Of a DNA stretch of 64,000 bases, positions 3,001 through 62,674 are shown piece after piece. The DNA is taken from contig JAJDCD010000012.1 in NCBI GenBank assembly GCA_029261035.1, forward strand, positions 158,776 to 222,775, in the 5' to 3' direction. Numbering within the stretch: position 1 is the stretch's first letter; the number at the start of each line of letters is the position of its first letter. This DNA comes from Candidatus Omnitrophota bacterium. Its GTDB lineage: Bacteria; Omnitrophota; Omnitrophia; Omnitrophales; JACROU01. A program made the translations under genes and the position numbers. A model generated the notes under the pieces. It searched no databases. It was not told the DNA's origin and was given only the letters and a program-made list of their open reading frames with translations.

Positions 3001-6000
3001 TTATATATTTGACGAATTCCTTTTTTCTCGTTAACAACTTCTCCATTTGTAATTAAATCATTCACCATCTTAAGGCCTGCAGAATAAACCAAACCAGCCG
3101 CCTCGTTCTTTACTTCTCTTAATGTCGTGTTAATTTTGTATCCATTGCTAATCTCATTTCTCCACCCATTCACTTCATCCACAACCAAACCTTCCACCAT
3201 ACGACCACGCCAGAATGTTGTTCCTGCATCTGTTGTTATATTCCTAAGTACACCATCTACTTTACTGCGTCTTTGTTCTACCTTTTGAACCAATTGCTGA
3301 GTGTAAATAACTTTTCCAGCCGAATCCAAATGAACTTCCCCACCATCTTTAGTTACTGTAATGGTTCCAGATTTTTTACCTTCTGCATCGTATTGAAATT
3401 CGGAGGTTTGTCCTAAACCGCCCCCTTGGGTCGTTGATGTTCTTCGAAGAACCAATTCTCTCTGACCATCCTTTTCTTTGCCCACAGCTTCTCTTAACTG
3501 AGTCTCACGAACTGTTTTTATTTCCTTAACCTGTTTTCCCCCAATGTTATGAACCTCAACAACACGTCGAGCACTCGAAGTCTCTTCAGCCAACTTATTA
3601 CCACTATCCATATCATAAAGAGAGTTAACCGTAGTTCCGTTTGTTTTAACAATCTTAGAAGCTCTGCCATTCTGCATATCCCACCAAGACTTAAAGGAGG
3701 TTCGTGTGCCATCATCGGCTAAAATATTATGAGCTTCTTTTGCTCTATCAAAGAAGTCATCACTTGGAGGTTTGTTACCCGCAGTTGCTTCCTCATACTT
3801 TTTGCTAGCTTCAACCATTTTTGTAATGTAATTATTTACTTCTTCAAACATTACGTCATAATTCCCTCCAGAAGAAGTATTTTGAAATGCTCCTCCCTCA
3901 TAATCCATAGAACCTTTCAAACGTCTTTGTTCTGCTTCAATTAATCTCGTAAGCGCAGATCCGTCATTTCCTAAATCTGCCCCATGATTATGGTGGTCCA
4001 TATGATCCGGAGAACCGCACTGCGCTGGAGCTTTATGCGTGTAGCTTTTAACTTCTTTAATAACCCTTCTGCTTACAAAATCATTATCCAACTCTCTTTC
4101 GAACATTTTTTTCAAAGTAGTTTCTAATGTCTCTTTCATATCTTTAAATCGATCTACCACTCCATTGTTCAATCGAGCACCGTTAATTCTCTCAACTTCG
4201 TAAGCTTCCGTACGAGTCTGTGTATCTCGATCGTAAGTACTTCTCTGTCCCACTTTCCATTTAGAGCGGTAAGCAGTATATATAGTCGTGTCTTCATAAA
4301 TCTTTTTCATTAAGGTAGCAAGCTTTGCTGTATCTAAATCTGAAGCTTTTGATTTTTGAAAAGGGATATTGTTTAACTTTTCGCCCGTAAGAATCTCTTC
4401 TGTTTGGACATCACTATGAAAACGAACTCGAGAAGGTAAAATCTGAAGAGGATCCCAATCGCCAAAACGGTAAATAACTGTTTCATCCTGAACCAACTTA
4501 AAGTCTTGTTTAAACATATCTTCCCAGAGGTGCGCCATCTGATAAGTCTTTACATCTTTTTTAAATTCATCTACTTTAATTGGAGATGGCCATTTTTTAA
4601 TATATTCCAAAACTTTATTTCTCTCATATTTATCTTGTTCATAGGTAAATCCATCTTTCTCATAACTTCTATTTAAGATTTCATTCCCTTCTTGCTTTAA
4701 ATCTTCTTCTACAACCTCTGCAATAAGATCTGCTCTTTCATAAGCACTCATTTCATACCAGCTTTTCTTGGCTTCAACACGAGCAACAAACCTAATGTTA
4801 ATATCAAGCGCTGATAACTCATTCAAATCAACATCTGTAATGTTTGGGACTACTTCTCTTAAATGTTTTCTAGACGCTTTAATAAGAGCATTTCTATCCG
4901 CATCAATCAGCTTATCAATCTCTTCATTTACATATTTATCCATTGCATCGTCTACATATTTTTTCTTAATGATCAGCACATCTGTTTGTCCAACAGCGTC
5001 ATCTCTTTGTCGAACAGCATCATCAATTTGCTCTTGCGTGGAATTAGGATCATTCATAATACGTTGCAACTCTGCTTCTGCTTCGTTTTCTCCCCAAGCA
5101 TCAAAAAGTTTGGCTTTAATCTCATTGTAGTGATTATCATTTATAACAGTGTCCACAACACCTTCTTGAAACTCTGAAAAATCAAAATATTCGTGATTAA
5201 ATTTATCTCTTTCAACTTTAATTCCACGATCCGCTCCCATAAAACCTTCGTCTGTCTGAAAATCAATCCCACCGATCCCTTCTTCTATTTTATTGACTAA
5301 ATTCATCATACGACTAAACGACCCACCACCGCGTCCATCCGTATCCAAAATATCCTTAGTTGTAGGAAATGAAAGCGTTGTATCCTTTGTTGTTTCTGTA
5401 TAAGTACCATCCTCATTACGTCTATCTCCATAATATTGGCTATACCGTGGAGGCTCCCCAGTCATAATCCGTTCTTTTTCGTAAATTTTAAGAGGAGGAG
5501 TAGGCCCGTCTTGATATCTGTTTTCTTTATACTCATCGTATTTCTCTTCTGCACTTTTAAATACACCTCCCATACTGGTCATATCTAATTCAGGGGTGTA
5601 ACCTCCAGACATACTATAAAGTGAACGGCCATAATAATAGCCTGCATATTTGATAGGGTCGTCAGAAGTTCTATTCTTAGCAAGAATGCTTTCTGCCAAT
5701 GTTTTCATTTGAGGTTCGATCGTTGACTTTTGTTGCTTAATCCAATCTTTGTACGTATCAGCAGCATCACTAATCTTTCCTAAAGCTCCGTCCATCCCTG
5801 AAGATCCAACCAAAGCTTCATGTATTTGTTCAAATGCATCTCTGGATTTTTGAAATGCCTCTTGATAAGCTGCTTCTGTTTCATCCACAAATGTGGTGTA
5901 AGCTTCTCTAAATTCGTCTTGAGCTTTTTTATCAATTTCTTGTTTTGCATTTCGAATGGCATCTAACTGAGCAACAAACGTCTCTTCAATACCTTCTCTT

Positions 6001-9000: not shown

Positions 9001-12000
9001 GTTGGGCGTGACTCTCCTATAATAAAATTCATAGCACTTTGAGCCATACTTACCATTTGAGTATAATTAGCCGCTTTTATATTGTTTCTTTTTTCTGTAT
9101 CCGTTTCACCATCATACATACTCGCTTCAAACTCACTTACCCATTGCGAAACAGATTTTCCACCAGGTTTATAACGTGTTCTTTCATGAGGTTGATAGGC
9201 TTCAACTTCTGAATTCCAACGATATGAAGTCCTTTCTTTTGATGCATACGCATTTAATTGCCCTAAAGCATAATCATAAAGGGCTATATAAGCAGCACGA
9301 TGGGTGTTGTGGTGACCTGTTAATGTAGTTTCAAAGCTATTAATTGCTGTTTCAACTTTGGCTTTGTTTGCACGATAATCTTTGACGAAATGTCCATCCG
9401 TTCCTTCTAAAGCTGGATCCAAAAAGTCAGGGTCATCTAATGCAATAGCATCTTCGTAAAAATTCTCAATATTATGAGGTTGATACAATTCTTTCAAATC
9501 GGTTGTGTGCTTTTTTAAATTCTCAAAGAGTTCCACCGTTCTCTTTCTTTGAACTAATATACGCTCCTTTACTTTTAACATATCCTTAGCATGCTCTAAA
9601 TCTCGAAGTAAAGGACTGCTGTCATCTCTATCGGAGGCTTGGTCATACAAAGCTTGTCTTTGTTCTACGATTTGTTTCGCTACATTGTAATCATGTTCTG
9701 CAAGAAACTTCTTCGCTGCCAAACCACGTATATCCAACTTACGAAGAACCATCATTCCAGCATCCACTTCTTCAAATGAGATATCATTCCAACTTTTATC
9801 TGAAATATCTTCAGCAAACTCTGCAGCTTGCCCCGGTTCTGCGCCGGCAGTCCCTTCTAATGCTTTTAAGTCTTTTTTAGCATTTGTGAGATCAAACTCT
9901 GCAGCTTTCACCGCTAACTCAGCTGCTGCAACAGCATCCCCCTCTGCCACTTTCAATTGATCTCTCGCATTTTTTAAAGCAATTTCTTTTGCTCGAATCA
10001 CTTCTCTCAAAGCAGCTCCCTGCCGACCCGACAAAGCTGCTTTTGCTGCTGTCATTGCTTGTTGAGCACGAGCCAAATCATCCCGATTATTCCCTTCAAG
10101 ATAATTACGAACATCATCATAATATTTTTCTGCAGATTTTAAGTTAGTTGCTAAATTCTCAGCAAAAACATCTTTATCTTGGAAAGAATTGATTGCTACA
10201 AAAAGCCGTCCTTCATCTTTTCTGAAATTCTCATGCGCTGTAACCACTTTAGATGTTTCTTTATAGAGTTTCTCCATGGTGGCATGTTCACGAATGCGAT
10301 TCGTAATCGCTTTAACAAATGCATTTTTCGCCTGAACAGGCATCACCAATTTAGGAGGAGGATCTTGAGATAAATACCTCGCGTTTTCAGCCATTTGATC
10401 CGTTAAACCTGTAAAATTCTTTAGATGAGGTGGAATGAATTTATATATTTCTGCTGTAGGACCAGCTGCACCAACCTGATAAGCAGCAAAGAGTTTGTGA
10501 ATTTGCGACATTGTTGGATCGTAGTTTGATTCTGTGTCCTTTTGATTTGCTGTGGCCTGCAAAGCAGCTGCGTCATTTCTTAACTCTACCGCTTCAGCTT
10601 CTTTCTTTACAGCAAATGCCTCTAACTCTTGGACTCGCTTCAACATATCTTGAGTCGGCTGACTTAAAGCGCTCAATTCGGAATTCGCTTTTACTGCAGA
10701 AGCTCGAGCTTCTGCTGCTGCTTCCTCTGCCACTTCCGCAGAAGTAATAGCCACATCCGCTTGATGCTGAGCTGAAGTCAAACTAAAGGTTTGATATGGA
10801 AGCTCTCCATCTAAGATGACGCTAGAAGGATCTCTGAAATTCGCATTTCTTGGATCTATATCATCCAAGAGTGACCCATCTCCTCTTTCATCAATAATAT
10901 CCTCAAAAGTTCCATCGGACATAATTGCAATTTGTTTTAAAACTTTTCTTGCCGAAATAACTGGCTGTCCATCCTCATCAAATTGATCTTCCAAATACCA
11001 TATCTCACCCTTAATTCCTGATGGATTCGTCCAAACAATTTTTCCGTTTGGAGTCATTGTTTCTCCATTTTGATAGAAAAGTTCATCTTGGGCCAAATTA
11101 GCTGTTCCAGCTACTCTGAAATCAGTAATCTCATCTCCTTCTTGAGGAGGTGGTGCATTCGCAGGAGAATTTGTATCTTTAATGTATTGCAAGGTCCAAC
11201 CATTTTTTAAACGCGCTGTCGTAACAGACCCAACAGAAGGCTGAAAACCCAATTGATTTCCTGCACCATCATAGTAAACCTCATTACCATCAAAATAAGC
11301 TGTTTTTAATGTAATGTTGCCACGATCATCTTTTTCATATTTATATTCATAAACTTTTGGTAAAGCTATGATAGAACCTATCTGAGTCCCTTCTGTAGGA
11401 GCCTCAGAAGGTACTGCTTCTTGATTTTGCAAAACTTGAAGAGCTGCACCATCATAAACTTCTGATTTAACCAAATCACCAGCATCATCATAATGATTAA
11501 CCGTTCTAGAAGCCCCATTAGGTCCTCCAGAAGAGTTATCAATCATTTTTACAAGCAACCCTTCTTCTCTAAAATATTCAAATTCGTGTGTAACACCATT
11601 TGCAATAGAAAGTGTCATATCTCCCTTTTCATCATATTCGATATGGCTTTCTAAGGTTTCTTCCTGTTGCGTGACTGGGTTGACCTGAACAGCAGTTCCA
11701 TCGACAATAGTTTTTAAAATTTTACCTTTAGGATCATCGTCTTCTCTTTCGTAAGTGTATTTCATTACAGAACCATCAGGACGGTTAACTTCTTTAATTG
11801 TTGTGTCCGAGTTAAATATGGTAACAGTTCCTAAAGTTGTTCTATCTTCTGGGAAAAATGGATCTTCTGTGATTTCAGAACGTTTAAACGCTTTTCCTTC
11901 ATCGTCAATACCGTAAGTCCAAGAAGTCACAATCCCTCGTCCATCAATGTTTTTAGTTAACTTTCCTTCAACATCGAATTCTTGAGCATTCATCGTTCCG

Positions 12001-53461: not shown

Positions 53462-55048
53462 TTATAAACTTAATAACTTAACATCAATAACCTTGGAAGC
53501 ACTCTTTATTTCATCTAAAACAGCCGAGCTCACATCGCTATCTGTATTGATAACAGTAATAGCTTTAGCACCTTCTTCATTTCTACCCAAAGTCATTTCT
53601 GCAATATTAATATTATTGTTCGCAAGAATGGTTCCTATCTCACCCACAACGCCTGGTTTATCTTCATTCTCAACAACCAGAATATTCCCTTTAGGAACTG
53701 CATCCAAAAAGAAATTATCAATTTTCACAATTCGAGAATCTGTTTTACCAAAAAGCGTTCCCACAATGACATGAGACCCTTTATCCATTACTATTTCAAC
53801 AGAAATGAAATTAGCAAAATCTTCCAATTGAGAAGTCTTGCTCTCATTAATCGTAATCCCTCGTTCTTTAGCAAACAAAGGAGCGTTAACATAATTAACA
53901 ACACCTTCCCCACAAAAAGGCTCTAACAATCCCTTAACTGCAGCTAGAGTAAGAGGCGCTAGAGGAAATTGAGTCACTTCCCCACTATACTTCAAATTGA
54001 CTTCTTTAATACTCCCGGCAAAAAGCTGCGCTTGTGCTTTTCCAAGTTTTTCAGCCAACTTAATCCAAGGCCTCAATATCTCCATCGATTTTATGTCTAA
54101 CGAAGGCATGTTTACTGCGTTTTTAATTTCGCGTCCTAAAAGAACGTCCACAACCTGCTTCACAACGGCGACAGAAACGTTTTCTTGAGCTTCTGCTGTA
54201 GAGGCCCCTAAATGAGGAGTCGCAATCACCTCGTCTAAATCTAATAGTGGGTTTTCGAGTGGAGGTTCACTCTCAAAAACGTCCAGAGCAGCTCCTTTTA
54301 CTTTTCCGCTTTTAATAGCATCATACAAATCCTTCTCATTAATGATACCGCCACGAGCACAGTTTATTATCCGAACTCCATCTTTCATTTGCGCAAAAGT
54401 TTTTTTATTTAACATATGTTTTGTATCATTTGTTAACGGTGTGTGAAGAGTAATATAATCTGCCTTTGCATAAATTTCATCTAGCGTTGTTATTTCAACA
54501 CTCAAATCAGAAAAAGTTGTATTAGCAGCAATAAAGGGATCGTACGCCAATATATTCATACCAAAGCTCTGCAACCGCTTCGCCACTTCACGACCAATAC
54601 GACCAAACCCAACAACTCCCAAAGTTTTTCCGTAAATTTCACTCCCTTGAAACTTTCCACGTTTCCACTCTTTATCTCTAACGGAAACATGCGCTTGAGG
54701 AATATTTCGATTTAATGACAACAACATACTAACGGTATGCTCACAGGTGGAAATGGTATTCCCTTCTGGAGTATTCATCACAATAATACCTTTTTTGGTC
54801 GCTGCTTTTATATCTACGTTGTCTACTCCAACACCAGCCCTACCAATAACTTTAAGTCGATCTGCTTTTTCTATTAATTCCGCAGTTACTTTTGTGCCAC
54901 TGCGAACAAGTAAAGCGTCATAATTACCAATAATATTTTTCAATTCTTCAGGGTCTAATTTAGGCTTTACATCAAACTCTATTTCTGTTTGCTCTTTCAA
55001 TAATTCTAAACCTTTATCCCCCAAAGGATCTGAAATTAATATTTTCAT
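53462..55048 (-). CDS. serA: D-3-phosphoglycerate dehydrogenase with a C-terminal ACT domain. The start was moved to the MKILISD Met; the ORF track extends to 55114.
   Basis: ORF track. NAD-binding GxGxIG motif (GVVGFGRIGREVAKRL) and a ~528-aa length from the internal Met. Confidence 0.9.
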   Translation of the reverse strand: MKILISDPLGDKGLELLKEQTEIEFDVKPKLDPEELKNIIGNYDALLVRSGTKVTAELIEKADRLKVIGRAGVGVDNVDIKAATKKGIIVMNTPEGNTISTCEHTVSMLLSLNRNIPQAHVSVRDKEWKRGKFQGSEIYGKTLGVVGFGRIGREVAKRLQSFGMNILAYDPFIAANTTFSDLSVEITTLDEIYAKADYITLHTPLTNDTKHMLNKKTFAQMKDGVRIINCARGGIINEKDLYDAIKSGKVKGAALDVFESEPPLENPLLDLDEVIATPHLGASTAEAQENVSVAVVKQVVDVLLGREIKNAVNMPSLDIKSMEILRPWIKLAEKLGKAQAQLFAGSIKEVNLKYSGEVTQFPLAPLTLAAVKGLLEPFCGEGVVNYVNAPLFAKERGITINESKTSQLEDFANFISVEIVMDKGSHVIVGTLFGKTDSRIVKIDNFFLDAVPKGNILVVENEDKPGVVGEIGTILANNNINIAEMTLGRNEEGAKAITVINTDSDVSSAVLDEIKSASKVIDVKLLSL

Positions 55049-57302: not shown

Positions 57303-57689
57303 TTAAGGACATATTTCGGAGTTTAGAACTTTTTCTACTTCTTCTTGTAACCGGATTAAATTAAAGGGTTTAGATAAAAAGGAATCACAACCCAATTTTT
57401 TTGCATTTTCTTTAACTGTGAAATCGATATACCCGGTATTCACAATCACTTTACTCTTCTTATTAGAGGCTTTCATTTCTTTTAAGACCTCTAGTCCAGA
57501 TATGTCTGGCAGCTTCAAATCAAGTAAAATAAGGTCAAAATCGCCACTGTCAAATAGGTCCAATCCCTTCCGACCCGTATCTGCAACGGCAACTTGGAAG
57601 CCTTCATCTTCGAAAAACAGCTTCACTTCCTGAATAATGTCTTCTTCGTCATCAATGACTAATAGTTTCTTCATGTTCCACTTCCTCAA
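57303..57689 (-). CDS. Single-domain response regulator (CheY-like receiver, no output domain). The likely start is MKKLLVIDD.
   Basis: ORF track, 128 aa: VIDDEEDI...D...KLPD...K with receiver-domain acidic pocket and Lys. Confidence 0.85.
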   Translation of the reverse strand: MRKWNMKKLLVIDDEEDIIQEVKLFFEDEGFQVAVADTGRKGLDLFDSGDFDLILLDLKLPDISGLEVLKEMKASNKKSKVIVNTGYIDFTVKENAKKLGCDSFLSKPFNLIRLQEEVEKVLNSEICP

Positions 57690-59322
57690 AGATAGGAATT
57701 CTTATGATAAATTGGGTTCCAAGATCTGGATTACTGATTACCTCAATATCACCCCCATGAAGCTCAATAATATATTTACTCATATACAAACCAATACCAG
57801 AACCTTTACCTTCTTTTTTTGTTGTAAATCTGAAATTAAAAATTTTCTTCTTTATTTCATCAGACATCCCACAGCCATTATCTGAAAAATCAACCTTCAG
57901 CAAAGACTCATTTTCTTCATCACGAGATGCTTTAACCGTTATTCTTTTTTCCCTCTGACTTAGTAAAGCATGTGTAGAGTTAATAAACAAATTCAAAAAC
58001 ACTTCTTGCAAACGCTCTAAATCCCCTTTAATCAAAGGTACATCAGGAGCAATATCTATATCCACATCCACCCCAGATAAGTTATCCATATAAGTCTGGA
58101 ACCGAACCAAAGGAAGAGTCTCTTCTAATACAAGTTTTAACGATAGAGGCTGCATATGCCCCTTCTCATGTTTTCGCAAAAGTCCTGTCAGCGTGTTAAC
58201 AACAGCCTTAATACGCCCTATATTTGAATCAATCTTTTTAAATACATCCAAAACTTCACTTACCTTTAAATCTTTATTTTTTCTGTATTTCAAAATAACA
58301 CGACTTACATTCATTGACAGAATAGTTAAAGGATTATTGATTTCATGCCCTACAGAAGAAGATAAACGTCCTAATGTTGCCATCTTTTGCTCGTGCAATA
58401 GTTGAGCCTGTTTATCTTGCAATTGTTTGTTAGCCTCTTCCGTTTCCTTTAATGCTTCAATTAACTTATTTTGAGCGTCTGAAAATTCAAAATTAATAGA
58501 CTCCAATTTCTTACTTTTTGTAAGGGCTTCCTCATACAAACGTGAGTTTTCCATCGAGATTGCTAATTCTTGAACTAACTGAAACAATAAAGCCAGGTCG
58601 TCCTTATGAAAACTTTTCTTATCTTTTCTTTCCCCCAATAACAAAATAATTTTCATTTCACTGCCCAGAAAACTAGGAATAATACTAGCCGATTGAAGCC
58701 TCATCATTTCTTGTTTTAACAACTCACAGGAATAAGGTGCTGGAGCCCAACTTAAACCTCGGTTAGATTCCTGAATTACAGCTTCTAATCTCTCCAAACA
58801 AACAGATTGTTTTTCATTTTCCAAAAAGCTAATTAAAGGATTTCTCTCATCTACAGACAAAGCTATTTCTTCTTTTATCAAATATCCACGTTGATAAGCT
58901 AAACGAAACAAGCCTTCTTGGTCCTTATAAAGAATAGCAGCGTTCTTAACTTCAAGTATCAGTGTAGCGAAATGTACGATCAAACTAAACAATCTTCTTC
59001 TACTGCTAACTTTTGCTAAACGACGACTCACATCTTCAAGTAAATGCTTATATATAAGTTTTCTTGGAAAAAAGACCCAATCTAGGATCGTTTCTGTATG
59101 AGGGTATAAAAGATCATAAATAACGAAGGATAAAAAAGAAACCAACCCTACCAAAACCCAATGATTAATAGTTGTGGCAGATAAAAAATATCGGTTGCAG
59201 ATATAAAGAACAAAGTAGAGAGATAAAAAAACAGTAAGGAAGAATAAAGATTTTACAGCTTGTTTTGAAATGAAGTTGATTAGCGTAGGTTTTGAACCTG
59301 GATTGAATTTTTCTCTTGCCAT
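57652..59322 (-). CDS. Membrane sensor histidine kinase (HisKA + HATPase_c).
   Basis: ORF track, 556 aa. N-terminal TM helices, H-box SSVGHEINNPLTIL, and N/G1/G2 boxes (DNGCGM...GSGIGL). Overlaps the receiver gene start. Confidence 0.88.
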   Translation of the reverse strand: MAREKFNPGSKPTLINFISKQAVKSLFFLTVFLSLYFVLYICNRYFLSATTINHWVLVGLVSFLSFVIYDLLYPHTETILDWVFFPRKLIYKHLLEDVSRRLAKVSSRRRLFSLIVHFATLILEVKNAAILYKDQEGLFRLAYQRGYLIKEEIALSVDERNPLISFLENEKQSVCLERLEAVIQESNRGLSWAPAPYSCELLKQEMMRLQSASIIPSFLGSEMKIILLLGERKDKKSFHKDDLALLFQLVQELAISMENSRLYEEALTKSKKLESINFEFSDAQNKLIEALKETEEANKQLQDKQAQLLHEQKMATLGRLSSSVGHEINNPLTILSMNVSRVILKYRKNKDLKVSEVLDVFKKIDSNIGRIKAVVNTLTGLLRKHEKGHMQPLSLKLVLEETLPLVRFQTYMDNLSGVDVDIDIAPDVPLIKGDLERLQEVFLNLFINSTHALLSQREKRITVKASRDEENESLLKVDFSDNGCGMSDEIKKKIFNFRFTTKKEGKGSGIGLYMSKYIIELHGGDIEVISNPDLGTQFIIRIPIFEEVEHEETISH

Positions 59323-59484
59323 TGCAACTCCTGTTGCTATCTTATTTTATTTCATTCATACGTTCTCACTGAAATAATATATCGGCACTCAGAACCAGAA
59401 CCTAAGCCTTGATGTCCAAGGAAAAATACTTAGATTTACTTAATAAACTACTTCATCCCCTACCAAATGTCAAACCATTGAAAA

Positions 59485-59569
59485 TGGTGGCGCCGGAGAG
59501 ACTTGAACTCTCACACCTTGCGGTACATGATCCTAAGTCATGCGCGTCTGCCAATTCCGCCACAGCGCC
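59485..59569 (-). tRNA. tRNA-Leu (anticodon UAG), class II with a long variable arm, CCA encoded.
   Basis: Minus-strand sequence ggcgctgtggcggaattggcagacgcgcatgacttaggatcatgtaccgcaaggtgtgagagttcaagtctctccggcgccacca: 7-bp acceptor stem (one G-U), anticodon stem catga/tcatg with loop cuUAGga, 13-nt variable arm. Confidence 0.85.
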
Positions 59570-59599
59570 AGAACTAGATTAAAATTCAGCTTGTATTAC

Positions 59600-59860
59600 T
59601 AATTAATAATTTCACAAAGTGCACCGTGCACCCAAGGGAATATCCCCTTCAGCACCAGGCTAATCACTTCGCTACGCTTCGTAGCCGATGCTGGACTCAT
59701 ACCTTCCACATTTTATGATGTGGTGCATGGTCTGCCAGTCGACAAAACGATGTTTGCCTGTCGTGCACTTAGCTGTGAACCGTTTTTTGTGTTCACGCTT
59801 AGCATAGTGCATGGCCAATTCCCTGCCTGCCGGCAGGCAGGCGCCAGCTTCAGCGCCCTG
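59600..59860. other. GC-rich, palindrome-dense ~260-bp non-coding island between tRNA-Leu and tRNA-Lys. Candidate structured RNA or integration/recombination scar.
   Basis: Perfect 20-mer palindrome cctgcctgccggcaggcagg; other self-complementary stretches gtgcaccgtgcac, ggggatattccc, gctacgcttcgtagc, cttcagggcgctgaag, tgaacacaaaaaacggttca. GC content is markedly above surroundings. No ORF, and no match I can recognise to RNase P, tmRNA, SRP or 6S consensus elements. Confidence 0.35.
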
Positions 59861-60009
59861 AAGAGATCAAAATTATAAAGTATAAGCTAAAAAATAGCGA
59901 GAAAATCATATATATGATTTTCACTCTCATTTTGAATTTTTACTCTTCCATCTTTATTTGTATGGCCTACCATACGAAGCTAAGGACACGCTAGTGCCTT
60001 AGCGTAGTA

Positions 60010-60086
60010 TGGTGCCCGCACTAGGACTTGAACCTAGGACCCACTGATTAAGAGTCAGTTGCTCTAGCCAACTGAGCTATGCGGGC
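60010..60086 (-). tRNA. tRNA-Lys (anticodon CUU), CCA encoded.
   Basis: Minus-strand sequence gcccgcatagctcagttggctagagcaactgactcttaatcagtgggtcctaggttcaagtcctagtgcgggcacca: acceptor stem gcccgca/tgcgggc, anticodon loop cuCUUaa, T-loop ttcaagt. Confidence 0.85.
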
Positions 60087-60174
60087 AAAGTTATACCGCA
60101 TAGCTAAGTTGGCGTTATAGCTGCCTGTCTGCCATCTTGCTGGGCAGAAGCTATGCGGACTTATTATTTTATCT

Positions 60175-60849
60175 TTACGCCCTGTTTCTCTTCTTATCGA
60201 AATAGTCAAGGTCAGATAAAGGAACAGCTACAGATGTCGCAATATTGGTTAAATGCGCTGTAATTCGTTTAAAATACCTTGCTGTCAAAGTTAGGGAAAC
60301 GGTTTCATCGGACGGATAATTACTTTTTACTAGCTTCTTTAAAATTTCATCACAAGTCTCAGAAACTTCTCTCTCAACTTCCCATACAGATTCTGCCTTT
60401 TTTTCATCCGAATTCATAAAAGCTGTTTTTGTTTGTTTAAACAGTTGGAGAATTTTCTCATCAATAGAGTCAAACAATTCAACAAACTTCTGATTGTCTA
60501 AAGGTTTACCTGTAAATGTAGTAACTTCGTATAAGTTTTTTGAGTAATCCCCCAATCTCTCAGCATCCTTAACCACACTCATCAGCAATAACGAGGTCGA
60601 CATATCCACGGAGGGCTGAACGGCCAAATGTTCAACAATCCGTTTGCGAATTTCTTTTTCACGACTATTTACGCGGAAATCTATGTCATAAATAATCTTC
60701 TTAAGATCACCTTCTCCTTTATCGCGAATTAATTTGTCGCAAACAATCACAAACATCTCTTCTGTGTCATCCAGCATTTTTTTAAAATCCCCTAATACTT
60801 CGCTGACAAAATCACTACCTTTCCAAAACTGCATTAAATTTTTAAACAT
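60175..60849 (-). CDS. phoU: PhoU-family phosphate transport regulator.
   Basis: ORF track, 224 aa, with the two-repeat PhoU helical architecture and a position downstream of a Na/Pi cotransporter gene. Confidence 0.8.
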   Translation of the reverse strand: MFKNLMQFWKGSDFVSEVLGDFKKMLDDTEEMFVIVCDKLIRDKGEGDLKKIIYDIDFRVNSREKEIRKRIVEHLAVQPSVDMSTSLLLMSVVKDAERLGDYSKNLYEVTTFTGKPLDNQKFVELFDSIDEKILQLFKQTKTAFMNSDEKKAESVWEVEREVSETCDEILKKLVKSNYPSDETVSLTLTARYFKRITAHLTNIATSVAVPLSDLDYFDKKRNRA

Positions 60850-60885
60850 AGCACCTTCTCCTTTTAACCCTAAGTGGACTCATCT

Positions 60886-62019
60886 TTAATTAAATAACTT
60901 TGATATCAAAATCATCAATGCCGGAAGAATAAAAAACACTCCGGTAACATAAAATATGGCATACCTTCTCTTCTTAAATGCTAACTCACTCAAACCTTTA
61001 GCTAAGCGAATTGGAATGGTTCTAAAAATCTTAATAGGGTAAATAATAACCACACCAATAAAATTAAAGAGGAAATGAACAAATGCAATCGTAATTGCTG
61101 CTATATTCCCTGTCGCTAAAGAAGCTAAAATGGCTGTCCCCGTAGTTCCAATATTAGCTCCAAGAGTTACGGGGAAAGCAAACTCAATTGTAACAATACC
61201 AGCCGCAATCATAGGAATTAACAAGGATGTTGTAATAGAACTACTCTGAACAATGATCGTAAAAATAATCCCTGCAAAAATCCCAACAATCCCCCCTTTA
61301 GTCAAAATGTTATTTAAAACCGTTTCTGTTTTATCTAACACAAGTGACTTCATAACCTTAACAATGCCAAAAAGAGTAAAATACATAATAATAATTGAGA
61401 CCACTAAAATGAGTATGTAACTTAGATTATGTGAAGCTTCGAAAAGGTCAAGAAACATATTTTTAATATAGTTTATCGTTGGTTTGGTTACCATCTTAAG
61501 AGGGCTCGTAAATTTAATCCCTCCTATTGATTCAAACTGAGAAGACATAAACATAGCTGTTTTCTGAAGAAACCCGGTCATCAGCTCTAAAGGAAATATA
61601 ATAGCAACACAAATTAAATTGAAGAAATCATGAACCGTCGCGCCTGCAATCGCACGTTTAAATTCTTCACGGCGCGTAATATGTGCCAGAGATACTAATG
61701 TATTCGTTACCGTTGTCCCAATATTGGCACCCATAATAACAGGGATCGCATTTTCAATAGTAATCACACCCGATGCAACAATACCGACCAGAATGGAGGT
61801 TGTGGTTGAGGAACTTTGAACCAAACTTGTAGCAAGAATACCAATAAACAAACCAACGAAAGGGTTATTCGTTGTCGTCAACAAGGTTTCAGCAAAACCT
61901 TTGCCAAATCCCTTGAAAGCAGCTCCCAGCAACCCAATACTAACTAAAAACCAATAAATTAAACCAATAACAATAAGTAGCTTAAGAATGGTTTTAATTA
62001 TTTTATTATCCATACCCAC
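60886..62019 (-). CDS. Na+/phosphate cotransporter (NptA / Na_Pi_cotrans family), membrane protein.
   Basis: ORF track, 377 aa, with two internal repeats carrying QSSS.TTS motifs (VQSSSTTTSILV ... VQSSSITTSLLI). Confidence 0.82.
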   Translation of the reverse strand: MGMDNKIIKTILKLLIVIGLIYWFLVSIGLLGAAFKGFGKGFAETLLTTTNNPFVGLFIGILATSLVQSSSTTTSILVGIVASGVITIENAIPVIMGANIGTTVTNTLVSLAHITRREEFKRAIAGATVHDFFNLICVAIIFPLELMTGFLQKTAMFMSSQFESIGGIKFTSPLKMVTKPTINYIKNMFLDLFEASHNLSYILILVVSIIIMYFTLFGIVKVMKSLVLDKTETVLNNILTKGGIVGIFAGIIFTIIVQSSSITTSLLIPMIAAGIVTIEFAFPVTLGANIGTTGTAILASLATGNIAAITIAFVHFLFNFIGVVIIYPIKIFRTIPIRLAKGLSELAFKKRRYAIFYVTGVFFILPALMILISKLFN

Positions 62020-62141
62020 CTAAACGAAAAATGCATTCTACATTCAGAAATCAATAAGAAATTAGATTTAAACTTTATACAGGAACGTAATACTATAACA
62101 AAACCTCTACATTGTCACATTGAAATTGCACCAAAAAGCAA

Positions 62142-62174
62142 CTTTTACATTCACCTTACAATTGCTTTACATTC
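62142..62174 (-). promoter_or_regulatory. Array of 7-bp direct repeats with 11-bp phasing (GAATGTA-aagc-AATTGTA-aggt-GAATGTA), plus further (C/T)AATGT(A/G) copies at 62036-62047 and 62107-62122, upstream of the Na/Pi cotransporter-phoU operon. The architecture resembles a Pho box.
   Basis: Minus-strand gaatgtaaagcaattgtaaggtgaatgtaaaag has the repeat starts exactly 11 nt apart. It lies 120-160 nt upstream of the ATG at 62019. Confidence 0.45.
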
Positions 62175-62214
62175 AAGGGCTAAAACACTCATTCAATTCA
62201 AAACTCAACACAAT

Positions 62215-62258
62215 AAAAAGGGTCAAGATTACAACTTCACGTATCCTTGACCCTTTTT
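62215..62258. terminator. Bidirectional Rho-independent terminator: 8-bp GC-containing stem GGGTCAAG...CTTGACCC flanked by A5 upstream and T5 downstream.
   Basis: Plus-strand aaaaaGGGTCAAGattacaacttcacgtatcCTTGACCCttttt. On the minus strand it lies 27 nt downstream of the stop of the small secreted-protein gene. Confidence 0.7.
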
Positions 62259-62284
62259 AATTTTAAATTAAAATCTCAACAAGC

Positions 62285-62674
62285 TTATTTTACAGTAAAT
62301 ACAATAATTGACGTTGCCCCATTTGCAACAAAATTAGCTCTGTACTTACCTGACTTCAATTTTTCACCACTTAATAGTTTATCCAAAGCACCTTTTGGAG
62401 CTTCAAATAATAATAGAGCTGGAGCAGCTCCCGCTTGTGGGTTCCCAGAAGCATCTGCTTTAAAAATATTAACAATTACTTGACCTTCTCCTTCAACTTC
62501 AATCTTTGAATTAGAAGGAACTGTACCTTCAACTTCAGCGAAAACACTCCCCTTCACAGCTTCTTGTCCATTGATAGAAACTTTAAAAGGATATATTGGA
62601 TCCGTTTCTGCATTTGCAATAGAACCTAAAGAACAAAAAATACCCATCATTAAAATCACCAACATTTTATTCAT
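62285..62674 (-). CDS. Small secreted protein of unknown function (signal peptide plus ~105-aa mature domain).
   Basis: ORF track, 129 aa. N-terminus MNKMLVILMMGIFCSLGSIANA (Sec signal, AxA cleavage site); no motif I recognise. A terminator follows it. Confidence 0.6.
   Translation of the reverse strand: MNKMLVILMMGIFCSLGSIANAETDPIYPFKVSINGQEAVKGSVFAEVEGTVPSNSKIEVEGEGQVIVNIFKADASGNPQAGAAPALLLFEAPKGALDKLLSGEKLKSGKYRANFVANGATSIIVFTVK

Follow-up and report, generated by a model that had tools for sequence, protein, structure and literature searches.

Three direct repeats phased at exactly 11 bp were found upstream of the promoter of an Na/Pi-cotransporter/PhoU operon in a 64,000-nucleotide stretch of Candidatus Omnitrophota DNA (the window, hereafter), and about even chances are given here to the proposal that they form a conserved putative operator for a response regulator of the OmpR/PhoB family. 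What the analysis shows is the repeats themselves, their phase, their rarity, their conservation at a fixed spacing to a conserved promoter in one close relative (L014), and a lack of fit to the canonical Pho box of the phylum; that a protein binds them, its family, the sign of regulation, the transcription start and the signal are inferred.

The minus strand from 62174 to 62142 reads out as GAATGTAAAGC + AATTGTAAGGT + GAATGTAAAAG, that is, as three tandem units at 62164–62174 (unit 1), 62153–62163 (unit 2) and 62142–62152 (unit 3), which occupy about −81 to −91, −70 to −80 and −59 to −69, respectively, relative to the predicted transcription start. On this strand the 7-mer GAATGTA starts at 62174, AATTGTA at 62163 and a second GAATGTA at 62152, and the TGTAA cores run from 62171 to 62167, from 62160 to 62156 and from 62149 to 62145, giving a period of exactly 11 bp; the three exactly spaced boxes described in the first-pass annotation were thus confirmed. 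The geometry, which had been ascribed there to OmpR/PhoB-family sites, was likewise borne out by the three units, since they are direct rather than inverted repeats, with a centre-to-centre distance within the 10–11 bp and a conserved core within the 5–7 bp that are generic to operators of this family. The spacers between the cores (AGCAAT and GGTGAA) are not especially high in A/T content, unlike the A/T-rich spacers that typically separate the cores of PhoB sites. Each unit also carries a short A-run (AAAG, AAGG and AAAAG, respectively), and these runs recur with helical periodicity. Other types of regulatory site were rejected on sequence form, namely Crp/FNR or NtcA-type palindromes because the repeats are direct, LytTR sites because the period is wrong, and DnaA boxes.

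The array is located between a strong terminator hairpin on its upstream side and the Na/Pi-cotransporter/PhoU operon on its downstream side. The hairpin, which belongs to an upstream 129-aa gene with no family match, spans 62214–62259 on the minus strand (−24 kcal/mol, z = −5.9) and is followed by a U-run; given its strength, the 271-bp spacer that holds the array should be insulated from upstream transcription. The first gene of the operon (60886–62013, minus strand, ATG at 62013) encodes a 375-aa Na/Pi cotransporter (PF02690, 4e-37; NF037997), an identical copy of which is contained in a public protein collection, and 36 bp downstream of it lies the PhoU-domain gene of the same operon (60175–60849, minus strand; PF01895, 2e-20; TIGR02135 below its cutoff). 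The two Pfam matches agree with the earlier assignment of a symporter plus PhoU operon, and this gene pair is present in all relatives. Neither a gene for a DNA-binding response regulator nor a pst or phoBR gene was found in the 64-kb window or in the 21-kb L014 locus. Genes for a 556-aa histidine kinase and a 128-aa receiver-only regulator follow the operon both in the window (57303–59322, minus strand) and in L014 (12355–14401), and their conserved linkage to the operon hints at a functional tie; lacking a DNA-binding domain, the receiver-only regulator cannot itself bind the repeats. Two minus-strand tRNA genes, tRNA-Leu(tag) at 59485–59569 and tRNA-Lys(ctt) at 60010–60086, take up most of the ORF-free 850 bp that separate phoU from the histidine-kinase gene. 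At the other end of the window, a stop-free minus-strand frame of 12,098 codons (3–36296) runs off the window start, with a gene start near 36230 (MRLKKARSEKK...); giant genes in Omnitrophota have been described previously (bioRxiv 10.1101/2023.11.21.568195).

The promoter scan predicted a sigma-70-type promoter with both hexamers (GTGACA-17-TAGTAT, minus strand, 62118–62090), comprising the −35 hexamer GTGACA at 62113–62118, 26 bp downstream of the array, and, after the 17-bp spacer, the −10 hexamer TAGTAT at 62090–62095. In L014 the −35 hexamer is conserved at 6/6 positions and TTTTGTTnTAGTATT, at the −10, almost fully, and transcription is predicted to start near 62083. Between the repeats and the −35 lies a T-rich stretch on the minus strand (TTGCTTTTTGG..., 62119–62141), which is possibly UP-element-like and shows 7/11 and then 3/11 identity with L014. 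Additional copies of the box had been reported further downstream; they are present as sequence (62122–62108 and 62045), but are neither in phase nor conserved. Specifically, the CAATGTG/CAATGTA pair (62107–62122, minus strand) overlaps the −35 region, of which L014 retains only GTGACA and no boxes, while the GAATGTA at 62045 (GAATGTAGAATGCA, 62033–62046, minus strand) falls in the predicted 5′ leader and is not conserved in L014. The distances of these copies from unit 3, 30, 38 and about 106 bp, place them out of the 11-bp phase. The 271-bp spacer contains four copies of the hexamer AATGTA where 0.11 would be expected (P about 6e-6), and the two that lie beyond the phased array are specific to the window and out of phase. 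The predicted leader showed no significant RNA structure (z = 0.17), and an Rfam search of 59200–62400 at a permissive threshold returned the two tRNAs only, with no riboswitch or leader RNA.

The rarity of the array was evaluated against both the actual and the shuffled sequence. No other copy of TGTAA-N6-TGTAA, as a pair or as a triple, exists on either strand of the 64-kb window, and a search for the degenerate triple [TA]GT[AT]A-N6 x3 across the window, the 21-kb sister locus and 324 kb of fetched loci gave no further match. The first-pass annotation had allowed that the phasing might prove coincidental in an AT-rich genome and had named shuffling as the check, the outcome of which depends on the region considered. 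Dinucleotide-shuffled versions of the window contained a mean of 0.32 exact 5-mer triples (of any sequence, with a period of 10–12), and at least one was found in 24% of the shuffles, so the phased repeat by itself is not significant window-wide; the expected number is about 0.01 in all ~2.1 kb of intergenic DNA and 0.0014 in the 271-bp spacer. Tandem Repeats Finder, run on 61900–62400, reported no repeat, as the array is too short for it. The shuffling frequency and the silence of Tandem Repeats Finder would both suit an explanation without any protein operator, in which repeats that arose by chance in AT-rich DNA were kept by incomplete divergence or through a DNA-shape or extended UP-like promoter effect, whereas the expectation of about 0.001 such triples in the spacer speaks against it. 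Because the shuffle test is non-significant across the window, conservation was taken as the main evidence.

A single close relative, the 2.17-Mb JGI contig L014, whose Na/Pi protein is 85% identical, was obtained from the protein search; scans of genomes and metagenomes with the transporter protein returned relatives of at most 73% identity, and no further members of the lineage in the collections searched. The relatives of the transporter assign the window to Candidatus Omnitrophota. The downstream gene order in L014 is that of the window (PhoU, histidine kinase, receiver-only regulator, trigger factor and ClpP), and the genes upstream of the operon differ between the two. The conservation footprint was therefore an ungapped comparison of two spacer sequences, those of the window and L014. 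Unit 1 (CAATGTTAAGC) was identical at 9/11 positions, unit 2 (CTTTGTAAGGT) also at 9/11, including TTGTAAGGTG at 10/10, and unit 3 (GCTAGTAAAAT) at 7/11; the core TGTWA is conserved, with TGTTA as the core of unit 1 in L014. Taken together, 25/33 positions of the three units are identical (P about 3e-4 assuming 45% neutral identity). The alignment runs without indels from unit 1 through the −10, with 56/85 identical positions; identity is only 22%, the random level, over the 77 bp upstream of the array, and the 5′ leader is poorly conserved. Both the units and their spacing to the promoter are thus constrained in this one comparison genome, as is generic to OmpR/PhoB operators. Since the sole close relative retains the units and the promoter at fixed spacing, the repeat element is under constraint and is probably functional.

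The same comparison bears on the explanation by chance or DNA shape. In its favor, the footprint consists of two sequences only, the 4-fold degenerate sites of the transporter gene are unsaturated between them (45% identical against 29% expected from composition), and the helically spaced A-runs could confer a particular shape. However, the conservation of the array is block-like and equal to that of the −35 and −10, next to a spacer at 22% identity; the best conserved segment, TTGTAAGGTG, is not an A-tract; and the array would lie beyond the usual −40 to −60 zone of UP elements. We consider this explanation unlikely. The conserved blocks could alternatively be read on the plus strand, with unit 3 supplying a −35 (TTTACA) and unit 1 a −10 (TACATT) of a divergent promoter that would produce a short antisense or terminator-proximal transcript. 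The promoter scan indeed lists TTTACA-18-TACATT at 62144–62173 on the plus strand with 9/12 matches, and the L014 equivalent is TTTACT-18-TAACAT, but an 18-bp spacer with 4/6 hexamers is weak, and the best conserved unit 2 would be reduced to mere promoter spacer. Moreover, identity over the 77 bp downstream on the plus strand is no higher than random, the two genomes have different genes upstream of the operon, and any transcript would run at once into the two-sided hairpin; a divergent promoter is hence very improbable.

Next, the putative operator was compared with the control regions of orthologous operons in the phylum. Omnitrophota relatives with transporters 64–73% identical usually have, immediately upstream of the operon, genes for a regulator resembling PhoB and a kinase resembling PhoR, and in 9/9 loci with this phoB-phoR linkage (L001, L003, L018, L032, L034, L035 and L036–L038) four 11-bp units of the form AATCTTCAYAn precede the operon. 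These canonical arrays are in gene orientation, lie in a short spacer and end directly at a −10-like TAATAT, TAAAAT or TATAAT, as exemplified by the Pho box of L001 at 3729–3790, just upstream of the Na/Pi gene. Their presence in all nine phoBR-linked relatives suggests that the Na/Pi-phoU operon is a core member of the Pho regulon in the phylum. Four units abutting the −10 also agree with the textbook layout, given in PMC4415409 as two boxes of two 11-nt units in place of the −35. In L033 (7851–8000; transporter 70% identical), the operon follows a PIN-domain gene and has no adjacent phoB-phoR, and its spacer contains neither the canonical Pho array nor a TGTWA array, so control of the operon varies across the phylum. 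L003 has a stretch of about 85 bp in two direct copies (gctggatttatcct[a/g]acctctctttacatgcaaacccaagtaaaaggggtccatgaccccc...) at 5730–5890, between phoR and the Pho boxes. For scoring, a Pho matrix was built from 24 units of six phoBR-linked loci, that is, from genomes with transporters 64–73% identical and not from the genome studied here; the three loci outside the matrix have the canonical array as well. The AATCTTCAYAn x4 array abutting the −10 is the more useful by-product of the analysis and is usable as a matrix for predicting the Pho regulon of Omnitrophota.

With this matrix, the window array gave no match in gene orientation; in the inverted orientation only, it scored 5.5 bits over three units, compared with 28–39 bits for true arrays of the relatives from which the matrix derives. 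In the inverted alignment the window TTTACA stands against the canonical TTCACA, and all three window units have a T in place of the C shared by every canonical unit examined. The array does possess the period, the direct repeats (three units, where a Pho box has at least two at an 11-bp period) and the phosphate-related target of a Pho box; it departs from one in two features, consensus and position, as it lies at −59 to −91 upstream of a complete −35/−10, whereas canonical arrays abut the −10. The initial Pho-box reading is consequently not supported: the nine relatives share a different array, the resemblance appears only on inversion, and the −35 is not replaced. The best three-unit match of the matrix in the window (54419–54451, minus strand, 15.3 bits; ACTCTTCACAC ACCGTTAACAA ATGATACAAAA) is intragenic, lying in a serA-like 3-phosphoglycerate dehydrogenase gene, and has a single good unit, the first; it was therefore set aside as probably due to chance.

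Spelled out in full, this reading is of a true but lineage-specific Pho box, phosphate-responsive and bound by a PhoB orthologue with shifted specificity or in inverted orientation (TTTACA/CTTACA/TTTACA). The downstream operon is phosphate-related and is preceded by Pho boxes in 9/9 phoBR-linked relatives; the plus-strand units CTTTACA, CCTTACA and CTTTACA differ from CTTCACA mainly at one base; and the three-unit score falls within the top 0.016% of window positions. TTTACA also fits the Bacillus PhoP repeat TT(A/T/C)ACA. That Pho-box consensus sequences differ between species, as stated in PMC4415409, would be compatible with such a shift. Nevertheless, the single differing base is precisely the invariant C of the canonical units, gene orientation gives no match at all, and 5.5 bits is far from the 28–39 bits of real arrays. 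The inverted array would, in addition, stand at −59 to −91 behind a promoter that owns a conserved −35, unlike the canonical arrays at the −10. Furthermore, phoB-phoR is not adjacent to the operon in either genome of the lineage, and no PhoB from either was found among the best 120 PhoB homologues, a weak negative that does not imply absence. On balance, a lineage-specific Pho box is improbable.

The putative operator was then set beside known operators of the OmpR/PhoB family. The Pho-box units of E. coli are CTGTCAT, with TGTCA as the PhoB core, and those of Streptomyces coelicolor are GTTCACC in 11-nt direct repeat units. The statement of the first-pass annotation that the boxes are unlike the E. 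coli consensus was half right, since TGTAA differs from TGTCA and shares with it the core TGTnA. At ompF and ompC, the tandem OmpR sites F1–F3 and C1–C3 occupy about −40 to −100 of sigma-70 promoters and act via the RNA polymerase alpha subunit; they are 20-bp units with a half-site spacing of roughly 10 bp. The window array resembles them as tandem family sites upstream of a sigma-70 promoter and differs in sequence and in unit length, and nothing ties it to osmoregulation. PHO boxes are defined as 11-nt units of 7 conserved and 4 variable bases (PMC4415409), and the class II operators of Streptomyces PhoP consist of three 11-nt units (PMC2275107). With these PhoB/PhoP sites the window array has in common the 11-bp direct repeats, the conserved core followed by a variable spacer, the phosphate-transport target, the precedent for three units in Streptomyces class II operators (PMC2275107) and the TGTnA core of E. 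coli; it differs in that PHO boxes with an activating role overlap the −35 or stand in its place, while it extends from about −59 to −91. With the canonical Pho array of Omnitrophota it shares the orthologous operon, the phylum and the 11-bp period, but that array has the core CTTCA with its invariant C in place of TGTAA, four units rather than three, gene orientation against the −10, and an adjacent phoB-phoR.

The closest look-alike is the three-repeat TGTTA operator of ArcA, as a resemblance and not as a membership. According to PMC4173790, ArcA sites are direct repeats of ATGTTAAAAA with a TGTTA core, spaced 11 bp centre-to-centre and often three in number, and DR2 of the icdA site is TGTAA. 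The window array matches them in period, in repeat number and nearly in core (compare icdA DR2 TGTAA and the TGTTA of L014 unit 1); measured against the consensus sequence alone, units 1, 2 and 3 agree with the 10-bp ArcA repeat at 7/10, 4/10 and 7/10 positions, and the core at 4/5. On the other hand, ArcA is a redox regulator of proteobacteria and acts mostly as a repressor, from sites that overlap the promoter. We know of no ArcA orthologue shown in Omnitrophota. As the TGTnA core is common to TGTCA of PhoB and TGTTA of ArcA, it points to the regulator family rather than to PhoB in particular, and by this analogy TGTnA cores at 11 bp can be regarded as a family-level signature of OmpR/PhoB regulators.

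These comparisons are consistent with a working model in which the repeats of core TGTWA/GTWAR would serve as an operator within the regulatory DNA ahead of the Na/Pi-cotransporter/PhoU operon. The most likely protein to bind them would be an OmpR/PhoB-family response regulator of the winged-helix type, presumably binding head-to-tail as a dimer plus one extra protomer on one helix face, centred near −64, −75 and −86. Once bound, it would modulate the GTGACA-17-TAGTAT promoter, most likely through upstream activation via the RNA polymerase alpha subunit, although activation is not obviously needed as the promoter downstream of the array already has a good −35. The first-pass annotation considered phosphate-responsive control plausible; a phosphate signal relayed by PhoB seems to us doubtful.

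The spacer of L014 contains a further element that may reflect the history of this control region. At about 9889–9899, 112 bp upstream of the Na/Pi ATG, an isolated canonical Pho unit, AATCTTCATTT (8.9 bits), directly follows unit 3, at about the distance from the −10 expected for the first unit of a canonical array; its window equivalent is AAGTTGCTTTT, in which the Pho unit is lost. The lone unit is possibly left over from an ancestral Pho box and, speculatively, would fit a scenario in which the Pho box decayed after the operon had parted from phoB-phoR and a new upstream operator was added. In its full form, the scenario would have the operon of this lineage uncoupled from PhoB, the four-unit Pho box having decayed to a promoter with a −35 and leaving AATCTTCATTT as its relic, and rewired to an OmpR-family regulator recognizing ArcA-like TGTWA repeats; judged from two spacers and the arrays of the relatives, this sequence of events is tentative and rather unlikely.

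In kind, the element is an ordinary bacterial promoter-upstream repeat that leaves current understanding unchallenged. To our knowledge, Omnitrophota have no cultured representative and no experimentally mapped regulon, and the array, if it is a real operator, would offer a testable cis-element for gene regulation in the phylum. Collectively, the comparison of the two lineage genomes with the phoBR-linked relatives suggests that the way in which this operon is controlled differs from one Omnitrophota lineage to another as a result of change, and if the rewiring is true, it would make the rewiring of a regulon visible in a phylum that is uncultured and host-dependent.
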